A DNA stretch of 64,000 bases, taken from the sequence record NC_008515.1, one strand, 5' to 3'. This DNA comes from Escherichia phage RB32. The notes beneath the pieces are model-generated. The model was given only the letters and a program-made list of their open reading frames with translations. It had not been told where the DNA came from and made no database searches. Position numbers and translations under genes: made by a program. This document shows, piece by piece, positions 1-31,616 of the stretch; within the stretch, counting starts at the first letter, position 1; every line of letters starts with the position of its first letter.

Positions 1-2178
1 TTAGGCCGCAAGGGCCTTCATAGTTTTAGCGATTTGGGAAACTTCATCATCACTTAAAGAGTTGCGATAACCGATGAAGTCGGAAACAATACGGAATTTC
101 TTGGTAAACTCAGCAACCATTTTATCACTGTTTTTTGAAGCATTATTTGATAATACATCAAAAAGATTAGTTACTGTCCAGATGTCATGACCAATGGTAT
201 CTTTTCCACCATTAAAATATACACCCTGTAATGAACTAACCATATTAGCGAGTCGTGTATATTCTTCAGAAACTTCATCTACACTGAAGTACTTCATCAT
301 AAAATCTAGCTCAGGATACTTGATAATTTTATCAATATATCGTTTAGCTGAACTTGAATAACCTACATACTTATCATAATCTACATCATCAAAAGCATCT
401 ACATATAAATCACGTAAAGCTTCAAAAATACATTGGCACTGACCGAGTTCTTTTACCTTTTTCTGTAAAAGCGGACGAATAACATAAAATTCATTAATGC
501 CAATAAGATTAGCCATACGAATCAAAATATTCATAGATGGATGACAAAGAGATGTAGTACCATCCATAGAGAAAATATCAGAACGATGCATATACGCTAC
601 ATAACCAGTAATTTCATCTGCTTCTGACGTGAGCGTAAATAATTCCTCTTTTTCCCAGCGCCCGTCTTTAATTTCAAACTTAAATGCTGTAGCAGCTTTA
701 GGACGAGGAGCTTTACTTTTAACTACCTTTGGAATATAGCTTTTAACTAAAGCTTCAATTTCTGACAAATAATGAATGTTAACTTCATCACTTTCAAACA
801 TCGCCATAATGTCAGGAAGCAAATCAATCTGCGATTCTACTTCTGGATTAATAAACAGAAGGCGTTCGTTGTGATGAATATTTAAAGTGTTATTAAATTC
901 ACTATCATCTAACGCATGTGCTAATCCACGGACAATATTAACACGATTTTTAATATTATCAATAACGATATTAATTTTTGTTGTATTAATACCAAACAGA
1001 CGATAACTTGATGCAATGGCTGAAGTTTCATGACTTTGCTTAATGCGTTTCAGTCGAGGGTCAAGATTTACTTCATACACAACTCCTGCATTGCATAACT
1101 TACTGTCAGGTTCAAACATGCTTTGCATCTTTTTATATGACAGATTTTTAGTCGTGAATTTGACTGAATTACTAATCATATAATCTCGAGCAGAATACCC
1201 CATCTTCATCAATTCACGGTATGTGTGACGAGGAGATGTAGATTCTTTAAATCGTTTTACATCTTCATTAAATGCTTTCTCACTAAGCTCTTTAACTCGT
1301 TCAATAATATTTTTACGAGTACGATCATCCAGTGAAAGAGCTTCACGAGATGGAGCAATATCAAGTGAACCCATTGGAAACTTAATGTAATTCACTTCAT
1401 TGCGAATGCTTAGCCAGTTACGGTCTCTAATAACACCATCGATAGGATAAACAATACCACCATAGATAGCATATAATCCACCACGATCAGGCCAGTATCT
1501 TTCTGGATTTACGCCGTAATAATCATCAAAATCCGGAAAATAATCAATTTCGCGGTCAAGACCATTAATGATAGCCAAATCTTTGAATGGTCGCATGATA
1601 TAAGAAACTTCATAAGCAAAGTTTCTAAAGTCTTTTTCTTCAACTGGAACTACGATTTCAATACCAGTTTTATCATCTGGACCCATTTCTTTTACGAATG
1701 TAGGTTTAATCTGTGGTCCATCACCATCCATGTAAGCTACATAACCACGAATTTCACCTTTATGATACGAAGTAATACTAAACGTATCAGTATAACTAAA
1801 CGGAGATTTAGAACCTAAACCAAATCCGCCAATGAAATCGTTAGATTCAGCCTTAGATGAACTGAAGTATGAATTATACAGACCAGGAGAATTATCATCA
1901 CCCTGAATATCAAAATCACTCATACCCGGACCAAAATCTCGACAAACAAATCGCGGATCTAAACGTCCAGGAACTTGTATAATAAATTTTTCAGGATTTC
2001 CATTAAGTGCATGAGCATCAATCATGTTAGTAATCAATTCACGGACTACTGCGCGAATCTTGTTTGTATACAAATCAGATGACAGAATTTTAAATACTTT
2101 AGGAGATGCTGTGATGCTAAATGCTTTTGATTTAGAACCATTACCAAGAATTGTTTCTTTTTCAGTGGTGATAATCAT
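1..2178 (-). CDS. rIIA: rIIA protein (rapid-lysis / exclusion locus)
   Basis: 725-aa ORF starting [14 protein letters not shown]; length and N-terminus match T4 RIIA as recalled; stop codon at window positions 1-3; gene 39 lies upstream as in the T4 map. Confidence 0.9.
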
Positions 2179-2188
2179 AATTTCCTCA

Positions 2189-2392
2189 TTAATTCATATT
2201 ACGCTTAATAACTTCAGCAACTTCTAGTAGTTCATCTTTAGTTGCGGTGTCAGATTGAATTTTATCTCTAATATCTTTAAAGCGGTTTTTAAATTCTTCG
2301 GCTTCTCCCATATCGAAAAAGCGTTGAATGATTCTATATTCTCGATGAACTGCTTTATCAAAAAGTTCTAAATTTACTTTATATGATTTCAT
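2189..2392 (-). CDS. small hypothetical protein (rIIA.1 position)
   Basis: 67-aa ORF between rIIA and gene 39; early-type promoter immediately upstream. Confidence 0.65.
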
Positions 2393-2417
2393 TTCAATAT
2401 CCTCATTTGCCCAATTA

Positions 2418-2447
2418 ATTATACCACATCCTTGTGGTAAAGTAAAC
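2418..2447 (-). promoter_or_regulatory. sigma70-type early promoter (-35 GTTTAC, 18-bp spacer, -10 TATAAT) reading toward rIIA.1
   Basis: minus strand reads GTTTACtttaccacaaggatgtggTATAAT upstream of the 2392 start codon. Confidence 0.5.
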
Positions 2448-4267
2448 TACTGGCTCATCCATTCTTTACGAAGGTCAGCGTTATCTCCCATGAGCATTTC
2501 AAAAAGCTCTTTCCAGTTCTCAGGAAGTTTAACAACATCATATACTGGATTTTGAATCATCTCACGATATTCAGATTTTTCCAAAGAGCCAAGTCCTTTA
2601 ATATAACGGATGCTATGTTTAGGTAGAGCATCTTTGGCACTCTCATATTCAGCGACTGTATAAAACCATTCTTGTTTTTTGCCGACCTGAGCGATGATTA
2701 CAGGAGTTTTGACAAAACGAATTCGTCCTTGCTCAAACAATTCTGGCCAATTACTAAAAAATCCGAGCAGAGAAGGATAAATGCTTCCTAGACCATCATG
2801 GTCAGCATCAGTCATAATAGCAATATTATGATAATTCAAGTTTTCAGCTTTTTCACCAAGAACTAATCCAGTGATTGCGCAAATATCAAATAGTTCTTTG
2901 TTTTTAAGCATATCAGCATATGACATACCCCAACTGTTGAGAACTTTACCACGTAATGGATAACCACCATGAAGTTCTTTATCACGAACATCAATAAGAT
3001 ATCCGATAGCCGAATCACCCTCAGTCAAGAACAATGTAGTATCAGCATCTTTACCACAAAGATTCGCTTTAATATGTTTATGAACCTTAGCTTTAGAAGC
3101 CTTTTTAGCTGCTTTAGTTTCTGCTGCTTTTTCTGCCGCCAATTTACGAGCCAAAGCAGCTTCAATAATCGGCATTAAAATTGCTTCATTATTTAGAATA
3201 GCACGTGAAATCTTTTTAGCATCAAGTTGAATATGACTACGAATTTCGCCAAATGGAGAAGTCAAACGCTCTTTAGTTTGAGAATCAAATCGCATGTTTT
3301 TCATATCACGAACAAACATAACGATAGTCAAACATTCTTTGACACGTGCTTTAGTTACATCAATTTTGAACTTACGTTTGATTTGTGGAATAAGGTCTTC
3401 ACAAATATCATCCATAACACAGTCAATGTGATGGCCACCATTCTTAGTGTGAATGTTATTCACGTAAGTTAATTGACGAAATCCATCCGGTGAACGACCA
3501 ACCGCAATAGAACAATTTTCTTGCTCTTGAACAATAGCATGTTCATCATACTGCCGTGCATATTTCTTAAAATTACCCTGAACCTTTTTACCATTAAAGG
3601 TAAATTGAATATCAGGATAAACAACAGCAAGTGTCTGGAGACGATCTAATGTAATGTCAAGATAAACTTGGGACAACTCATTAGTTTCAAATGACATAAA
3701 ATCAGGAATGAAAGTAACACGAGTTCCTTTCCATTTTCCAGGAATATCTTCCCATGATTTATTTTCCATGCCATTTGAACAACGAACTACAATATTATTT
3801 TGACCATCACCAGTTTCACCGACAAACATCACAGAAAAAATGTTTGTCAAACTAGAACCAACACCGTTCATACCGCCGGTGACGCGTTCTTTATCATCAC
3901 CGAAGTTACCACCTGCTTTTGGAATAGTCCATGCAGCAACAGGACCAGGAATTTCTTCACCGGTAGGTGTTTTAACCATCGCCTGTGGAATACCGCGACC
4001 GTTATCTTCAACTGTTACTTGATTGTTTTTAATAGTAACATTAATTTTATTTGCGAATTTAAACTTAGTACGAATACCTTCATCTACTGAGTTATCGATA
4101 ATTTCATCAATAAGCTTAACAAGACCAGGTACATACTGAACACTTTCCCATTTACCAAACAGAAAGCGCTCATGCATTTCATTAGCTGAAGAGCCAATGT
4201 ACATGCCGCTACGCTTTTTGATATGTTCAATATCGCTCAGAATTTTAATTTCATTCTTAATCATCAC
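2447..4267 (-). CDS. 39: DNA topoisomerase II large (ATPase) subunit, unsplit gp39+gp60 form
   Basis: 606-aa ORF; N-terminus MMIKNEIKILSDIEHIKKRSGMYIGS (GyrB-like ATPase), C-terminal ~150 aa correspond to T4 gp60; continuous frame, no bypass gap. Confidence 0.9.
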   Translation of the reverse strand: MMIKNEIKILSDIEHIKKRSGMYIGSSANEMHERFLFGKWESVQYVPGLVKLIDEIIDNSVDEGIRTKFKFANKINVTIKNNQVTVEDNGRGIPQAMVKTPTGEEIPGPVAAWTIPKAGGNFGDDKERVTGGMNGVGSSLTNIFSVMFVGETGDGQNNIVVRCSNGMENKSWEDIPGKWKGTRVTFIPDFMSFETNELSQVYLDITLDRLQTLAVVYPDIQFTFNGKKVQGNFKKYARQYDEHAIVQEQENCSIAVGRSPDGFRQLTYVNNIHTKNGGHHIDCVMDDICEDLIPQIKRKFKIDVTKARVKECLTIVMFVRDMKNMRFDSQTKERLTSPFGEIRSHIQLDAKKISRAILNNEAILMPIIEAALARKLAAEKAAETKAAKKASKAKVHKHIKANLCGKDADTTLFLTEGDSAIGYLIDVRDKELHGGYPLRGKVLNSWGMSYADMLKNKELFDICAITGLVLGEKAENLNYHNIAIMTDADHDGLGSIYPSLLGFFSNWPELFEQGRIRFVKTPVIIAQVGKKQEWFYTVAEYESAKDALPKHSIRYIKGLGSLEKSEYREMIQNPVYDVVKLPENWKELFEMLMGDNADLRKEWMSQ

Positions 4268-4291
4268 TTATCCTCGTTTGGTTTCGGGAAT

Positions 4292-4319
4292 ATTATACTC
4301 CAATAATCATAAAGCTAAA
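4292..4319 (-). promoter_or_regulatory. putative MotA-dependent middle promoter for gene 39
   Basis: minus strand TTTAGCTTTA (MotA-box-like) + 12 bp + TATAAT, 25 bp upstream of gene 39 start. Confidence 0.4.
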
Positions 4320-4331
4320 GGCCCGAAGGCC
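4320..4331 (-). terminator. GC stem with UUCG tetraloop (GGCC-UUCG-GGCC on the transcript) just after the upstream gene stop
   Basis: plus strand ggcccgaaggcc directly 3' of the stop of ORF 4334..4603; same hairpin type recurs at many gene junctions. Confidence 0.45.
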
Positions 4332-4333
4332 TT

Positions 4334-4603
4334 TTATTTAAAACGAATAGTCGAATCCTTGAAGAATAGTCCAGAACATACTGTTCCTTCTACTTTCTGC
4401 CCAGTAGGTCCAATAGCACGAAATCCAGTATGCTGGAAATCATTTTCAGAGCAACCGAACCAATTATATCCAGTGATTTCAATATTAGTAAAACCGCTTG
4501 AAGACAAAACTTTGGTTGCATTATCAGCATCAGTACATCCTATTAAAGACACTGCTAATACTAATGCTGCAATAGAACGATTAACATATTTCATAATTTT
4601 CAC
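4334..4603 (-). CDS. putative lipoprotein (signal peptide with lipobox-like LIGC)
   Basis: 89-aa ORF, N-terminus MKIMKYVNRSIAALVLAVSLIGC. Confidence 0.6.
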   Translation of the reverse strand: MKIMKYVNRSIAALVLAVSLIGCTDADNATKVLSSSGFTNIEITGYNWFGCSENDFQHTGFRAIGPTGQKVEGTVCSGLFFKDSTIRFK

Positions 4604-4971
4604 TTAAATTTAATGGCTTGAAGAAGACTAATAACTCTCAAGCGACTTCTTTCATCTTTAACTGTAAAGGAAAGAGGGTCACCAGATTTCATAGTGATAG
4701 TGCATCCAAAATCAAAATCTTCTGTAACTTCTTCGAATAGGTCAAATTCTTCATCATAAATTAGAACATTACTCTGAAAACTGTGAAGAATTTTTCCATC
4801 ATTTCCAGATGCTGTACTAATCATTGTAACATTATTACCTTTCATATCTTCAACGATAAATTCGCTTGTAGATATTACATTACTAATAGAACCATTCCTA
4901 TAAATAGCAGAAAATAGATATTTCTTTTCTTCACCTTCGCGAATGCGATATTTCTTACCGATTTTAAACAT
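4600..4971 (-). CDS. hypothetical protein
   Basis: ORF track 4600..4977; first ATG is the third codon (MFKIGKKYRI...), 4-nt overlap with downstream gene. Confidence 0.55.
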   Translation of the reverse strand: MFKIGKKYRIREGEEKKYLFSAIYRNGSISNVISTSEFIVEDMKGNNVTMISTASGNDGKILHSFQSNVLIYDEEFDLFEEVTEDFDFGCTITMKSGDPLSFTVKDERSRLRVISLLQAIKFK

Positions 4972-4973
4972 AA

Positions 4974-5150
4974 TCACCCTTTAAGTAAGTCGTAAAATCC
5001 ACCATTCACATGCTTAGGAGCGGAAACTAACCGAATAGCAATCCGATGACAATCAGGACATACATCAGTATCTCTTTCAGAAATTTTCTTGATTTTTTCG
5101 TATTCTTTTGCACAGTCTTTGGATTGACATTTATAATCATAAAGAGGCAT
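4974..5150 (-). CDS. small zinc-ribbon protein (CxxC...CPxC), below the ORF-track size cutoff
   Basis: 58-codon ORF read by hand: MPLYDYKCQSKDCAKEYEKIKKISERDTDVCPDCHRIAIRLVSAPKHVNGGFYDLLKG; fills an otherwise empty 175-bp gap. Confidence 0.4.
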   Translation of the reverse strand: MPLYDYKCQSKDCAKEYEKIKKISERDTDVCPDCHRIAIRLVSAPKHVNGGFYDLLKG

Positions 5151-5152
5151 AA

Positions 5153-5566
5153 TTATTCCTTAAAGTGAGCTTTCAACATCTGATACAAGGACCATGCTTG
5201 TTCATTATTTTCAATAGTAACTTTCATTACCGGGAATTCAGATGGTTCAGTTACTGGTGCAGGGTCTTCCTGCTCTTCAGCAGCCTGATATGGATTTTCC
5301 ACTTCATTAAAGAACTCGGCTTCGTTGCTAGAAAGCCAGATAAAGTTTTCGTCAATGACTGTACCTCGTGATGAATATCCAACTATGCCAGTAGATGTCA
5401 CAATTTTAGTAGGACGCCCGTAATAGTCAACATCTAAAATTTTAAAAGGTTCCATACCTAAACGCCGCGCATAGATTCCGTTATCAGTATGGTCTTTAAT
5501 AAAATTTTCTTGAGCTTGTTTATTTTTGAATTGATACCATTTATTAACTTCAAATTTAATAGCCAT
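5153..5566 (-). CDS. goF: hypothetical protein at the goF (comC-alpha) position
   Basis: ORF track 5153..5584; likely start [13 protein letters not shown] at 5566 in a TAATG overlap with the cef stop; naming by position and size only. Confidence 0.45.
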
Positions 5567-5781
5567 TAATAAATTTCCTTCCAATAAGTTGTGCCATTTT
5601 CAGTAATTTCACGAAATACACCATAAATTGGTTGTTTATCACCGACTTTCTCATACACATAAACAGAAGTCAAGTGAGTAAACTTGCTAGTATGTTCCTT
5701 TTGAACTACTACCAAATTTGGATCAAATAATACATCTTCAAATTCATCATTAGTGCAATTCTGAACAATTTTACGTTTCAT
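5566..5781 (-). CDS. cef: small protein at the cef position (71 aa)
   Basis: 71-aa ORF, same length as T4 Cef and in the expected map position; sequence identity not verified. Confidence 0.5.
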
Positions 5782-5952
5782 TACAATTTCCTCATTAATT
5801 GAACATTGGAGCGATGCGTTTCAGAAGAGTAGCAGCACCTTTGGCGAATTTTCCATTTTATTCTCCAAGTTGTTTTCTGTATCAGTAGTTGATATTGATA
5901 TAGTACCATAATCAACTACTGATGTATATAGTTTTATGAAAAATTTTAAACT
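5782..5952 (-). promoter_or_regulatory. early-promoter-like region with conserved leader and an 11-codon mini-ORF (possible remnant of a lost gene start)
   Basis: minus strand tggTACTATatcaatatcaact...ttggagaataaaATG, as upstream of imm.1 and the 326-aa ATPase gene, but the ATG opens only MENSPKVLLLF before a stop. Confidence 0.35.
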
Positions 5953-6450
5953 TTATGCACAGCGAGCTTTGCTATAGTGTTTAATCCAACTTTCAGGAAT
6001 GACTTTGTATGTTCCTAAAAATACCGCATTGTACAGCTTAACACCATCTTCTACCCATTGATCGGTAATGTATGCACACATAGCGCGAGTACGATGTTTT
6101 TGAACAACCCCTTCCTCATCTTCGGTAAATTCGAATTCATAAGGAGCAATGAACTTAATAGCCTGACCGAGTTTCCACTTAAAGTCTACACCTACGTGCG
6201 AAGTATCAATCGTTTCAATTCCTTTAGCAGGAACAGCTTTCAAAAACGCAGATTCAAGAAATTTCGCACGAACATAGCCAAACTGAGGTTTAGACTTTCC
6301 ATCTTTAGGAATGATACGCACTTTTACTTCAGAATCTTCATCTTTAACACCATGCTTAAGCTGAATGCTTACAATTTCGACCAATTTTCCTGCTGCTTTA
6401 GAACGGGATTTATCAGATACACGAGCAATTTCACCAATATTAATAATCAT
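5953..6450 (-). CDS. motB: MotB-like protein (modifier of transcription B position)
   Basis: 165-aa ORF at the position of T4 motB (162 aa); C-terminal region shared with the next ORF. Confidence 0.55.
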   Translation of the reverse strand: MIINIGEIARVSDKSRSKAAGKLVEIVSIQLKHGVKDEDSEVKVRIIPKDGKSKPQFGYVRAKFLESAFLKAVPAKGIETIDTSHVGVDFKWKLGQAIKFIAPYEFEFTEDEEGVVQKHRTRAMCAYITDQWVEDGVKLYNAVFLGTYKVIPESWIKHYSKARCA

Positions 6451-6494
6451 AGTTATCTCTCACTTGTTAAAAAGATTTTATACTCCACAGGACC

Positions 6495-6524
6495 ATTATA
6501 CTCTGGTCCCAAGAGTTTGTAAAC
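6495..6524 (-). promoter_or_regulatory. early promoter (-35 TTTACA, -10 TATAAT)
   Basis: minus strand TTTACAaactcttgggaccagagTATAAT upstream of 6450 start. Confidence 0.45.
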
Positions 6525-6526
6525 TA

Positions 6527-7066
6527 TTAATTCAAAATAGCTACCACTGCACTACGAGGTACTACGCTAAAATCACCTGCATGAACAACGTTCAGAAGTT
6601 CAACGCCATCTTCAATCCATTGGTCTGTTACCCAGCCACAGACCGAAATAAATGGAGTCTTGATAGCTACCGCACGAGTCAGAAGGTCAGTAGGATCAAC
6701 TTCTTGGAAGAGGATAATCTCTGCTTCAAAGACTATAGTTTTAATTACTTCATCATTATCTAAGCGGTGTACTCGAATCGCATAAGCTTTATTCTTATTA
6801 TACCAGTTACTTTTTGAAAAGCTTTTAACCACAAACTCGCCTTCACCAAAAACATTAGTCAATGCTTTATAACCCAAATTTAGTTCAGTAGTTTTAATTT
6901 CAGTTTCAACCAGTTTGTAGGTTTTGCCGATTTCAATAGCGGTAGTCATAGTAGGTTCCTTAATTTCCAGTGGTTTAACAGGGCATACATAAGTGCTTAC
7001 AACATCAAAATCAATCAGTTTAGCTACCGGATTTGGTATGTATTCAGGATTATAATTAAATTTCAT
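6527..7066 (-). CDS. MotB paralogue
   Basis: 179-aa ORF; C-terminus CGWVTDQWIEDGVELLNVVHAGDFSVVP resembles CAYITDQWVEDGVKLYNAVFLGTYKVIP of ORF 5953..6450. Confidence 0.55.
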   Translation of the reverse strand: MKFNYNPEYIPNPVAKLIDFDVVSTYVCPVKPLEIKEPTMTTAIEIGKTYKLVETEIKTTELNLGYKALTNVFGEGEFVVKSFSKSNWYNKNKAYAIRVHRLDNDEVIKTIVFEAEIILFQEVDPTDLLTRAVAIKTPFISVCGWVTDQWIEDGVELLNVVHAGDFSVVPRSAVVAILN

Positions 7067-7068
7067 AA

Positions 7069-7608
7069 TTATCTCATTTCAATAAAATCTACGAGTTCGG
7101 CATAGGATTTACGGAACATTACTTGATGCCCACCAATGATAACTTGGTCATCTGGTACTTCGTATACAGCAAGATAAAATCCTTTCGAAGATAATTCTTC
7201 CCGCTCTTCTCGCGTGAACCATCTCATCATATCATACTCACTAGCGAAAGCAAAATGATAAAGAGCTATAAACCATCCTGGAATATGATATTCTACTCCA
7301 ACATAATCTTTCTTGAACTTAGTATTAATTACTATATTAGCGTTTTTAACTAATAGTTTATCTTCGTGTGGTAAAGGAATTCTTTTATTATTATCGCTAT
7401 GATGCATAAAATTAGGTCTGTCATAACCTACGTGTAATAGCCACTCTTCACTCCATGAATCTATTATACTCCTGTACGGCGTTATTTGAACACAAAGATT
7501 TCGACGTATTGTTATAGCATCTTCATAATCAAGAATACTAAACGATGATTCAACACGATAAATTTTCATTTTATTATCCTCAGTAGCTATGGTGTTATAA
7601 TACCACAA
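7069..7608 (-). CDS. hypothetical protein
   Basis: 179-aa ORF, 3-nt spacing to downstream gene, early promoter upstream. Confidence 0.55.
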   Translation of the reverse strand: MWYYNTIATEDNKMKIYRVESSFSILDYEDAITIRRNLCVQITPYRSIIDSWSEEWLLHVGYDRPNFMHHSDNNKRIPLPHEDKLLVKNANIVINTKFKKDYVGVEYHIPGWFIALYHFAFASEYDMMRWFTREEREELSSKGFYLAVYEVPDDQVIIGGHQVMFRKSYAELVDFIEMR

Positions 7609-7626
7609 CTAACCGAGGAAGTAAAT
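7597..7626 (-). promoter_or_regulatory. early promoter (-35 ATTTAC, -10 TATTAT)
   Basis: minus strand ATTTACttcctcggttagttgtggTATTAT. Confidence 0.4.
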
Positions 7627-7632
7627 AACTTT

Positions 7633-8316
7633 TTATCGTTTTGTTGGAAGAGACAGAGGATCGCAATCTTCCTCTGACGGAGCATCTTCAAGACCCATAG
7701 CGTATCGCAAAGCATACTTCATCATCAGGATGTCTTTCGCACAGTCATGAATAGAATTATGCGCAACGAATCCATCTAAAGTTCCCTTTGGAAGGGGACA
7801 CGTTGTCATATCACGAACAAGCAGAAGTGCTTCAATTCTGGTACGAATATCACGCTGATTCCAGAATTTACATGGTTCTAACTTAAATGTATCAAGCTCA
7901 TTCTCGGAAACGCCGTTAAGACGTTGAATATCGCGAATGAGATCGACTAAAATTGGAAAATCAAACGACATTCCACGGCACCAGCCTTGAGATTTCCAAG
8001 GATCGATATTATGTGCATTGATGTAATCATTAAATTTTGCAATACCATCAATGGTGCTTACATCTTCATCTGATGGTGCAATATTTTTTCGAGCTTCAGG
8101 AGATTGATTCTTCCACCATTCGATAGTGCTTTTAGTAAAAAGACGATGTCCTTTTTGGCTTTTTAAATCAAACTTGATTTTAATGCCGCGTGAAACTAAT
8201 TCATCAAATGTTTCAACTACTTCTGGATTAGGGTCAAAGGCAATAACAGCCAAATCAATAACAGCTGCCTTTTCACCGCTTCCCATTGTTTCAAAATCTA
8301 TAATAAAATCAAACAT
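7633..8316 (-). CDS. dexA: exonuclease A (DEDD-type 3'-5' exonuclease)
   Basis: 227-aa ORF MFDFIIDFETMGSGEKAAVIDLAVIAF; matches T4 DexA length and DnaQ-like Exo I motif. Confidence 0.85.
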   Translation of the reverse strand: MFDFIIDFETMGSGEKAAVIDLAVIAFDPNPEVVETFDELVSRGIKIKFDLKSQKGHRLFTKSTIEWWKNQSPEARKNIAPSDEDVSTIDGIAKFNDYINAHNIDPWKSQGWCRGMSFDFPILVDLIRDIQRLNGVSENELDTFKLEPCKFWNQRDIRTRIEALLLVRDMTTCPLPKGTLDGFVAHNSIHDCAKDILMMKYALRYAMGLEDAPSEEDCDPLSLPTKR

Positions 8317-30899: not shown

Positions 30900-31616
30900 A
30901 TGAATTATAAACTAATTTATGAAAAGTTAATCTCTAATGCTAAATCTCGAAAACTTGATTGCTATACTGAATCTCATCACATTATACCACGCTGTTTAAA
31001 TGGCAGCGATGATGCTTCAAACTTAGTAGATTTAACACCAGAAGAGCACTATGTAGCTCATCAACTTTTAGTAAAAATTTATCCTTCTGAACCAAAATTA
31101 GTCTATGCTGCTAACATGATGACAGTTTCTACGAAATACGCTAAACGCAACAATAAAACTTTCGGTTGGATTCGTCGTAAACTCTGGGAATTAGAAAAGA
31201 ATAAAGAATTCTCCCAGGAGACACGAAAGAAAATGTCTGATGCAGTAGCTAATAAAGCAAGACTAACTTGTCCTCATTGCGGTAAGTCTGGATTAAGCGG
31301 GAATATGAATCGTTGGCATTTTGATAACTGCCCAAATCACCCTAATCCTAAAGTTAGACCACCAATGTCTAAAGAACACAGAAATAATATCTCAAACGGG
31401 CTTAAAGCAATCGTTCTTGAAGAAACATCCTGCGAATTCTGCGGAATGATAGGCAAGAAATGCGTTATCGCAGCGCATAGAAATTTCTGCAAGAAAAATC
31501 CAAATGGACGCAAGAAAACTGAAAAGACTGGTACTTGCGTCCATTGCGGTAAAGTTACCACTTTCGGAAATTTATCAAGGTGGCATAATGATAACTGTAA
31601 ATATAAACCTAGCTAA
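30900..31616 (+). CDS. HNH homing endonuclease (free-standing, mob-like) with three C-terminal zinc-finger-like repeats
   Basis: 238-aa ORF; HNH motif ESHHIIPRCLNGSDDASNLVDLTPEEHYVAHQ; repeats CPHCGK...RWHFDNC, CEFCGM...HRNFC, CVHCGK...RWHNDNC; AGGA RBS. Confidence 0.8.
   Translation: MNYKLIYEKLISNAKSRKLDCYTESHHIIPRCLNGSDDASNLVDLTPEEHYVAHQLLVKIYPSEPKLVYAANMMTVSTKYAKRNNKTFGWIRRKLWELEKNKEFSQETRKKMSDAVANKARLTCPHCGKSGLSGNMNRWHFDNCPNHPNPKVRPPMSKEHRNNISNGLKAIVLEETSCEFCGMIGKKCVIAAHRNFCKKNPNGRKKTEKTGTCVHCGKVTTFGNLSRWHNDNCKYKPS

Follow-up and report, generated by a model that had tools for sequence, protein, structure and literature searches.

In the list of ORFs for the 64,000-nt stretch of phage DNA analysed here (the window), a minus-strand ORF of 606 codons runs from a GTG at 4267 to a stop codon at 2447-2449, with 0 internal stops in 2447..4267. 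In DNA of about 36% G+C, a frame of 606 codons excludes a chance origin, and a chance ORF is also ruled out by the 605 codons of the probable gene together with the near-identity of its product to a protein of known structure. The initial annotation had described a single 606-aa ORF covering both the gp39 and the gp60 parts of the T4 enzyme. The uninterrupted frame was borne out, but the length was not, because the ATG at 4264-4262 is the more likely start and would give 605 aa. This start is preferred on the basis of the Shine-Dalgarno spacing, the N-termini of homologues and the annotation of phage RB33: the GAGGA at 4275-4271 lies 6 nt from the ATG but only 3 nt from the GTG, and protein alignments showed that the N-terminus MIKNEIK is common to gp39 of T4, T2 and T6. 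We therefore rejected the GTG as the start.

The RB33 record KM607001.1 is 100% identical to the window over 2100-4700 (the same positions in both) and over window 8000-32000 (record 8119-32119). It is classified in the species Tequatrovirus RB32, apart from the species of T4, with E. coli B as its host. The record labels 2447..4264 as RB33_003 (gene 39, ‘DNA topoisomerase II large subunit DNA-dependent ATPase’) and places rIIA.1 at 2189..2392 and 39.1 at 4334..4594. Gene 39 is separated from rIIA.1 by 54 nt and from 39.1 by 69 nt, which leaves no space for a further gene. Plus-strand ORFs inside gene 39 are short (at most 96 aa) and without support, so that a functional gene on that strand was rejected, and a scan of 2150-4700 for promoters and terminators gave a site count not above that of shuffled sequence. 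An extra ORF (4600..4971) between 39.1 and 39.2 has no counterpart in T4. We also observed that KM607001.1 contains, at 7287-7405, a perfect 119-bp tandem duplication that is not in the window, and that the minus-strand ORF 7069..7608, intact in the window (179 aa), is annotated as two shorter genes in that record. The features of the gene 39 locus are listed in Table 1.

Table 1. Features of the gene 39 locus (window coordinates).
Feature	Position	Strand	Basis and remarks
Gene 39, complete unsplit large GyrB-like subunit, type IIA topoisomerase	2447..4264	-	605 aa plus stop (2447-2449); ORF, annotation, T6 gp39 match, Pfam
In-frame GTG, probably not the start	4265..4267	-	3 nt from GAGGA
Shine-Dalgarno-like GAGGA, 6 nt upstream of ATG 4264	4271..4275	-	Sequence read directly; putative function
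GHKL ATPase core, aa 48-150	3815..4123	-	Pfam HATPase_c; motifs EIIDNSVDE, DNGRGIP, GGMNGVGSS
Transducer domain, aa 251-385	3110..3514	-	Pfam DNA_gyraseB; FDSQTKE loop, aa 326-332
TOPRIM core	2792..3045	-	LTEGDSA (E415), PLRGK, IMTDADHDG (D486, D488, D490, G491); TOP2B alignment
TOPRIM-associated C-terminal domain, aa 520-605	2450..2707	-	Pfam TOPRIM_C; with aa 492-519, equals the post-gap part of T4 gene 60
64-nt stretch swapped out by the mobA/bypass cassette in T4-type phages (gene nt 1419-1482, A473 third base to S494)	2783..2846	-	Intact; predicted MobA target; T4 alignments, T2 identity
Point matching the 50-nt coding gap of T4	2791..2792	-	Between G491 (GGT, 2794-2792) and L492 (CTA, 2791-2789); frame continuous

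The Pfam searches recovered HATPase_c (38.3 bits, cut-off 26.4, E 2e-9), DNA_gyraseB (51.1 bits, cut-off 27, E 1.5e-13) and TOPRIM_C (30.6 bits, cut-off 29, E 4e-7) in the gene 39 product. The Pfam Toprim core model gave no match at E <= 0.001; the TOPRIM motifs of the product align with LTEGDSA, PLRGK and IMTDQDQDG of human TOP2B. In the same way, its N-box and glycine-rich motifs align with DEILVNAAD, NGKGIP and GGRNGYGAK of TOP2B, which also has the same FDSQTKE motif (the QTK loop). Together, the Pfam domains and the TOP2B-aligned motifs indicate that the product is the GyrB-like half of a type IIA topoisomerase. The GHKL ATP fold, the QTK transducer, and the TOPRIM glutamate and DxDxD motif of a B-type subunit were all found, as was the partner gp52, which lies outside the window (RB33_258, ‘DNA topoisomerase II medium subunit, 52’; KM607001.1 160529..161857). 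The GHKL-transducer-TOPRIM order and the conserved catalytic motifs are shared with GyrB/ParE of bacteria and with the N-terminal half of Topo II of eukaryotes (E = 1e-59 for human TOP2B, 3e-36 for E. coli GyrB), but the phage protein is shorter, and the phage enzyme has been reported to be without C-terminal DNA-wrapping domains (PMC11461880).

Among the closest proteins is gp39 of T6 (structure in PDB 8ylu and related entries), which aligns over 1-605 to 1-605 with 1385 bits and two differences, D173T and Q526H. From this match of 603 of 605 residues, we infer that the gene 39 product has ATP-dependent strand-passage activity; structures and relaxation assays of the T6 and T4 topoisomerases have been published (PMC11461880). 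On its single 605-aa chain, the product has a GHKL ATPase, a transducer containing the QTK loop and a TOPRIM domain for metal binding. Judging from the near-identity to T6, this chain would pair with the GyrA-like gp52 to form a two-plus-two tetramer, and the tetramer would use ATP to drive one DNA duplex through a temporary break made in a second, as the T6 enzyme does. The topoisomerase II of T2 and T6 has two subunits, and that of T4 is the sole three-subunit one (PMC11461880).

In T2 (AP018813.1), gene 39 occupies the identical coordinates 2447..4264, and the difference from the window was noted as synonymous drift only (96.5% nt identity, 64 nt differences), with one amino acid changed (F70L). 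The genes of T2 and T6 resemble that of the window in being a single 605-aa ORF, in their genome position after rIIA and rIIA.1, in domain order and in motifs. The T2-type arrangement proposed in the initial annotation is therefore confirmed. The ‘parental’ Topo2L genomes of Manning and Atkins (for example, RB14, ‘60plus39’) belong to the same class: their Tequatrovirus gene 39 is uninterrupted yet 96-99% identical to that of cassette carriers, and we noted no substantial difference from the gene analysed here (bioRxiv 10.1101/2022.08.31.505936).

We then compared the product with T4, in which the same enzyme is encoded by genes 39 and 60. In the T4 reference, gene 60 lies at 2458..2990 (joined across a 50-nt gap, 2803..2852), followed by 60.1 and mobA remnants, and gene 39 lies at 3778..5328. 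Residues 1-473 of the window product align with residues 1-473 of T4 gp39, which continues past this point with its own 43-aa tail (FEEKEDG...LRKNL). Residues 477-491 (NYHNIAIMTDADHDG) align with residues 32-46 of T4 gp60 (NYANVAIMTDADHDG), which is the cassette-borne copy, and residues 492-605 are 100% identical to gp60 47-160. The product also matches the two portions of the gp39-gp60 fusion of T4 in PDB 8yo3. Thus, aa 1-473 and 492-605 are co-linear with the T4 proteins and 99-100% identical to them, and the downstream intergenic DNA is also identical. What T4 has in addition is a cassette of about 1.1 kb made up of the 43-aa gp39 tail, the mobA ORF (an HNH endonuclease), a 31-aa gp60 head, the 50-nt gap and a diverged version of the stretch that the cassette replaces. 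The T4 39-to-60 region is longer by 1053 bp, with 1012 bp standing in place of 9 bp (E474-N475-L476), plus the 50-nt gap.

The T4 reference gp39 itself departs from the other sequences that we aligned. It has LIR at aa 326-328 and D355, whereas the window, T2, HY01, T6 and a resequenced T4 (MT984581.1) have FDS and A355; human TOP2B also has FDS at the position of T4 gp39 326-328. The T4 reference DNA contains a compensated -1/+1 pair within 9 nt, and the variant therefore looks like an error of the old reference, carried over into the PDB 8yo3 construct.

At the DNA level, homology with T4 stops after GGTGAAAAAGC (codon A473, window 2848-2846) and restarts at AATTAT (N477). The T4 junction reads GAT CAC GAT GGA TAG CCTTCGGGC...ATTATTGGA TTA GGT TCT ATT, with the gap stretch in full being GAT GGA TAG CCTTCGGGCTATCTATAGAAATACCTCATAATTAAGAGATTATT GGA TTA GGT TCT. 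The window reads GAC CAT GAT GGT / CTA GGA AGC ATT, with the split point at 2792/2791. We mapped the gap region on the pairwise T4 alignment; a multi-sequence alignment had set the 50-nt gap against the replaced region, which was a misalignment. At the bypass site, GAT GGT CTA GGA (2797-2786) is in frame, with no gap, stop or frameshift. The frame is thus continuous where T4 bypasses, in alignments with both T4 and T2, as had been expected from the initial reading, and there is no untranslated gap. The junction glycine codon is GGT followed by CTA, whereas the 50-nt gap of T4 has matched GGA take-off and landing codons, a UAG stop and a stem-loop, which the window gene does not have. The T4 gap comes directly after the Asp-Gly that closes the DxDxD motif of TOPRIM, so that the target of the homing endonuclease is among the best-conserved parts of the gene. 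T4-type polymorphisms reach 9 nt beyond the landing codon.

We also searched for individual parts of the cassette. An intact MobA (from phage HY01) gave no tblastn match in window 1-8000, and neither did the T4 gp39 tail and gp60 head, for which only chance matches (E > 0.4) turned up, none of them at the locus. A blastn-short search with the T4 50-nt gap returned only chance matches of 9-14 nt. One of these, a 10-nt match of GCCTTCGGGC at 4330-4321, proved to be nothing more than a hairpin, upstream of gene 39, that has a UUCG loop. Thus, no part of a T4-type cassette was found by these searches, whether mobA or a remnant of it, the gp39 tail, the gp60 head or the gap, and we rejected the idea of hidden mobA or bypass sequence at the locus. 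With the short intergenic gaps on both sides, these results uphold the earlier statement that the locus has no endonuclease gene, no gene 60 and no 50-nt bypass. Far from this locus, the window does contain a free-standing HNH endonuclease ORF (30900..31616), which lies on the opposite strand in the interval from 45.2 to 46. The N-terminal part of its product shares 37% identity with MobA, and this paralogue accounts for the sole tblastn match of HY01 MobA (30900-31247).

The cassette boundaries that we obtained, gene nt 1419 on one side and 9 nt beyond G491 on the other, coincide with those that Manning and Atkins give for the clade 1 MobA element, in which the left end lies at Topo2L nt 1399-1419, the right end lies 9 nt past G491 and 64 nt are replaced (bioRxiv 10.1101/2022.08.31.505936). 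Over gene nt 1400-1547 (148 nt), the window and T2 are 100% identical. According to that preprint, which reports this second-hand, MobA nicks T2 inside the replaced region, about 20 nt upstream of the position at which the gap is inserted. Given that the target region is identical to that of T2, the gene would be sensitive to MobA, and the phage is predicted to be a cleavable recipient in a mixed infection with a MobA carrier.

To see how common each allele is, we used as a query the unsplit junction (161 nt, window 2740-2900), which spans both cassette boundaries, and counted records that matched it at >=80% coverage in one place. The unsplit junction was present in 453 records of the phage collection, and T4-type records match only about one third of the query. 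The T4 cassette (T4 2790-3920) matched 43 records, with coverage of at least 80% in 41; carriers include T4 stocks, RB55, RB59, HY01, HY03, vB_EcoM_112 and several Salmonella phages. Unsplit gene 39 is thus the rule (about nine in ten records) and the T4 split is the exception. In the preprint's account, ‘parental’ unsplit genomes that are 96-99% identical occur in every clade (bioRxiv 10.1101/2022.08.31.505936). The initial annotation had put the gene forward as a natural uninvaded reference allele. This holds insofar as the target region equals that of T2, but the allele is not special, given 453 unsplit records against 41-43 with the cassette, and T2, T6 and RB14 are already published references.

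Taken together, these results make it almost certain that window 2447..4264 is an intact, ancestral-type gene 39 that lacks the mobA cassette. Either the homing-endonuclease cassette of about 1.1 kb never reached this gene or it is no longer there; in T4 and a minority of relatives, the cassette divides the gene into 39 and 60 and brings the 50-nt translational gap with it. An artefact of assembly or annotation, in which a split gene or a short insert has been collapsed into a single ORF, has a negligible chance of being correct. The 119-bp duplication by which KM607001.1 differs elsewhere does indicate that assemblies are not flawless. However, the window equals KM607001.1 across the locus, the uninterrupted junction recurs in 453 separate records, including T2 and T6, and assemblers do not collapse a unique insert of 1.05 kb. 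Moreover, the T2 and T6 enzymes have two subunits, and the T6 structure was obtained with expressed gp39 (PMC11461880). It is also quite improbable, if less so, that the gene is a secondary revertant whose ancestor carried the cassette and lost it by precise deletion or by recombination with an uninvaded relative. T-even phages recombine freely, the 5' flank is among those uninvaded alleles that are nearest to T4 (97.5%), and ‘hit and run’ remnants have been reported in other clades (bioRxiv 10.1101/2022.08.31.505936). Against this, the gene is 100% T2-type both in the 64 nt that the cassette replaces and in the 9 nt that follow the landing codon, it shows none of the synonymous changes of T4 (GGA TTA GGT TCT, ACA GAC GCA GAT CAC), and no remnant of the T4 gp39 tail or gp60 head was detected. 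A clean recombinational replacement would look the same as a gene that had never been invaded, so the idea adds nothing to the reading of an intact, cassette-free gene 39.

If absence of the cassette marked a T2 lineage distinct from T4 at gene 39, the window would fall with T2, and the arrangement, the coordinates and the 100% T2-like target region agree with this, as does the placement of RB33 in the species Tequatrovirus RB32 rather than in that of T4. To examine this, we computed flank identities on the 5' 1419 nt of gene 39 that all the phages share. The gene in the window (RB33) was 97.0% identical to the T4 reference, 96.6% to HY01 and 95.8% to T2, and the T4 reference was 96.2% identical to HY01 and 95.7% to T2. 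Against the resequenced T4, the RB33 gene scored 97.5%, the best uninvaded alleles were those of VEc74 (97.8%) and RB18 (97.7%), and the carriers EC128 and BF15, which are outside the T4 species, scored 97.4% and 97.3%. With 97.0-97.5% identity to T4 against 95.8% to T2, the RB33 flank thus lies nearer to T4, and the carriers outside the T4 species (HY01, EC128, BF15 and pSe_SNUABM_01) are, at 96.2-97.4%, no closer to T4 than the cassette-free phages are. On the sequences compared, then, cassette presence does not track the phylogeny of its host gene. This independence from gene 39 flank identity fits a mobile element and the repeated insertions that have been reported: the preprint of Manning and Atkins describes the MobA cassette as mobile, with many independent insertions in several species (bioRxiv 10.1101/2022.08.31.505936). 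A T2-lineage marker is thus an unlikely interpretation, and we rejected cassette absence as a lineage marker on the flank identities. The proposal in the initial annotation that the phage lies outside the T4 lineage proper at this locus is weak and overstated, since the lack of a mobile cassette does not establish it.

The unsplit gene 39 is already known. It is an annotated gene, and its unsplit form has been described for T2, T6 and the ‘parental’ genomes, so that the discovery value is small and the window offers one of hundreds of natural cassette-free controls. Because its 5' part is 97.5% identical to T4, near the best uninvaded match (97.8%), it could be a closer ‘before’ sequence than T2 (95.7-95.8%). 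We suggest, tentatively and as a minority possibility, that it belongs with those uninvaded alleles that come nearest to the recipient of the T4 cassette. If this speculation is true, the gene would have a small advantage over T2 as the natural ‘before’ state from which to reconstruct the invasion, and it would be usable for testing MobA homing and the protection of the carrier against re-cutting by the 50-nt gap. In any case, the comparison confirms that the T4 cassette extends from base 3 of codon 473 to 9 nt beyond the landing codon, and it places the cassette directly beside DxDxD, the metal-binding motif of TOPRIM. It also illustrates that the presence or absence of the cassette is unfit for assigning these phages to lineages.

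We compared the gp39 sequences, the topoisomerase large subunits, at aa 326-328 (window 3281..3289; T4 counterpart, NC_000866.4 4345-4353). The T4 reference gp39 has LIR immediately ahead of the conserved QTK loop, whereas FDS is common at this position to RB33, T2, HY01, T6, a resequenced T4 (MT984581.1) and human TOP2B. Because the T4 reference DNA contains a compensated -1/+1 pair (CGATTGATTCGTCAA vs CGATTTGATTCTCAA), LIR looks, from the sequences compared, like an old sequencing error. The T4 construct in PDB entry 8yo3 includes LIR, together with D355 rather than A355.

The other features considered here are collected in the following table.

Features in the window, in order of position
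Feature	Window position	Strand	Remarks
Hairpin with UUCG loop (GGCCTTCGGGCC), then TTTAGCTTTATG and TATAAT	4310..4333	(-)	upstream of gene 39
RB33_005, 123-aa ORF	4600..4971	(-)	between 39.1 and 39.2
RB33_010, 179-aa ORF	6527..7066	(-)	downstream of motB
ORF, 179 aa	7069..7608	(-)	intact
Free-standing HNH endonuclease ORF, 238 aa	30900..31616	(+)	strand opposite to neighbours

The hairpin element may represent a terminator with a middle promoter behind it; a pattern scanner called neither a terminator nor a promoter at 4310..4333. The hairpin and the stem-loop in the gap of T4 gene 60 (GCCTTCGGGC) have 10 nt in common, a likeness that we judged to be due to chance. RB33_005 gave zero matches to Pfam. 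It is absent from T4, in which the spacing between 39.1 and 39.2 is only ~106 bp, and T2 has a shorter ORF at the same position; the interval looks like a variable slot for small genes. As there is a Pfam hit to the motB family at the C-terminus of RB33_010 (aa 141-174; E 3e-8), this ORF may be a partial motB paralogue.

The RB33 record (KM607001.1) carries a 119-bp perfect tandem duplication (GATATTCTACTCC...CGCTATGATGC) at 7287-7405, which is missing from the window, and the coordinates of the two sequences are offset by 119 downstream of it. Two shorter genes, RB33_011 and RB33_012, are annotated in KM607001.1 where the window has the single ORF at 7069..7608. Either the duplication is an artefact of the assembly of KM607001.1, or stocks of the phage differ here.

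The HNH endonuclease ORF is flanked by genes 45.2 and 46, has an 8-nt overlap with the 3' end of the latter, and is annotated in RB33 as a 'putative site-specific intron-like DNA endonuclease'. Its Pfam HNH match scores under the curated cut-off. The N-terminal 109 aa share 37% identity (E 1.7e-16) with the intact MobA homing endonuclease of phage HY01, and therefore RB33 has a MobA paralogue elsewhere in its genome, although it is without mobA itself.
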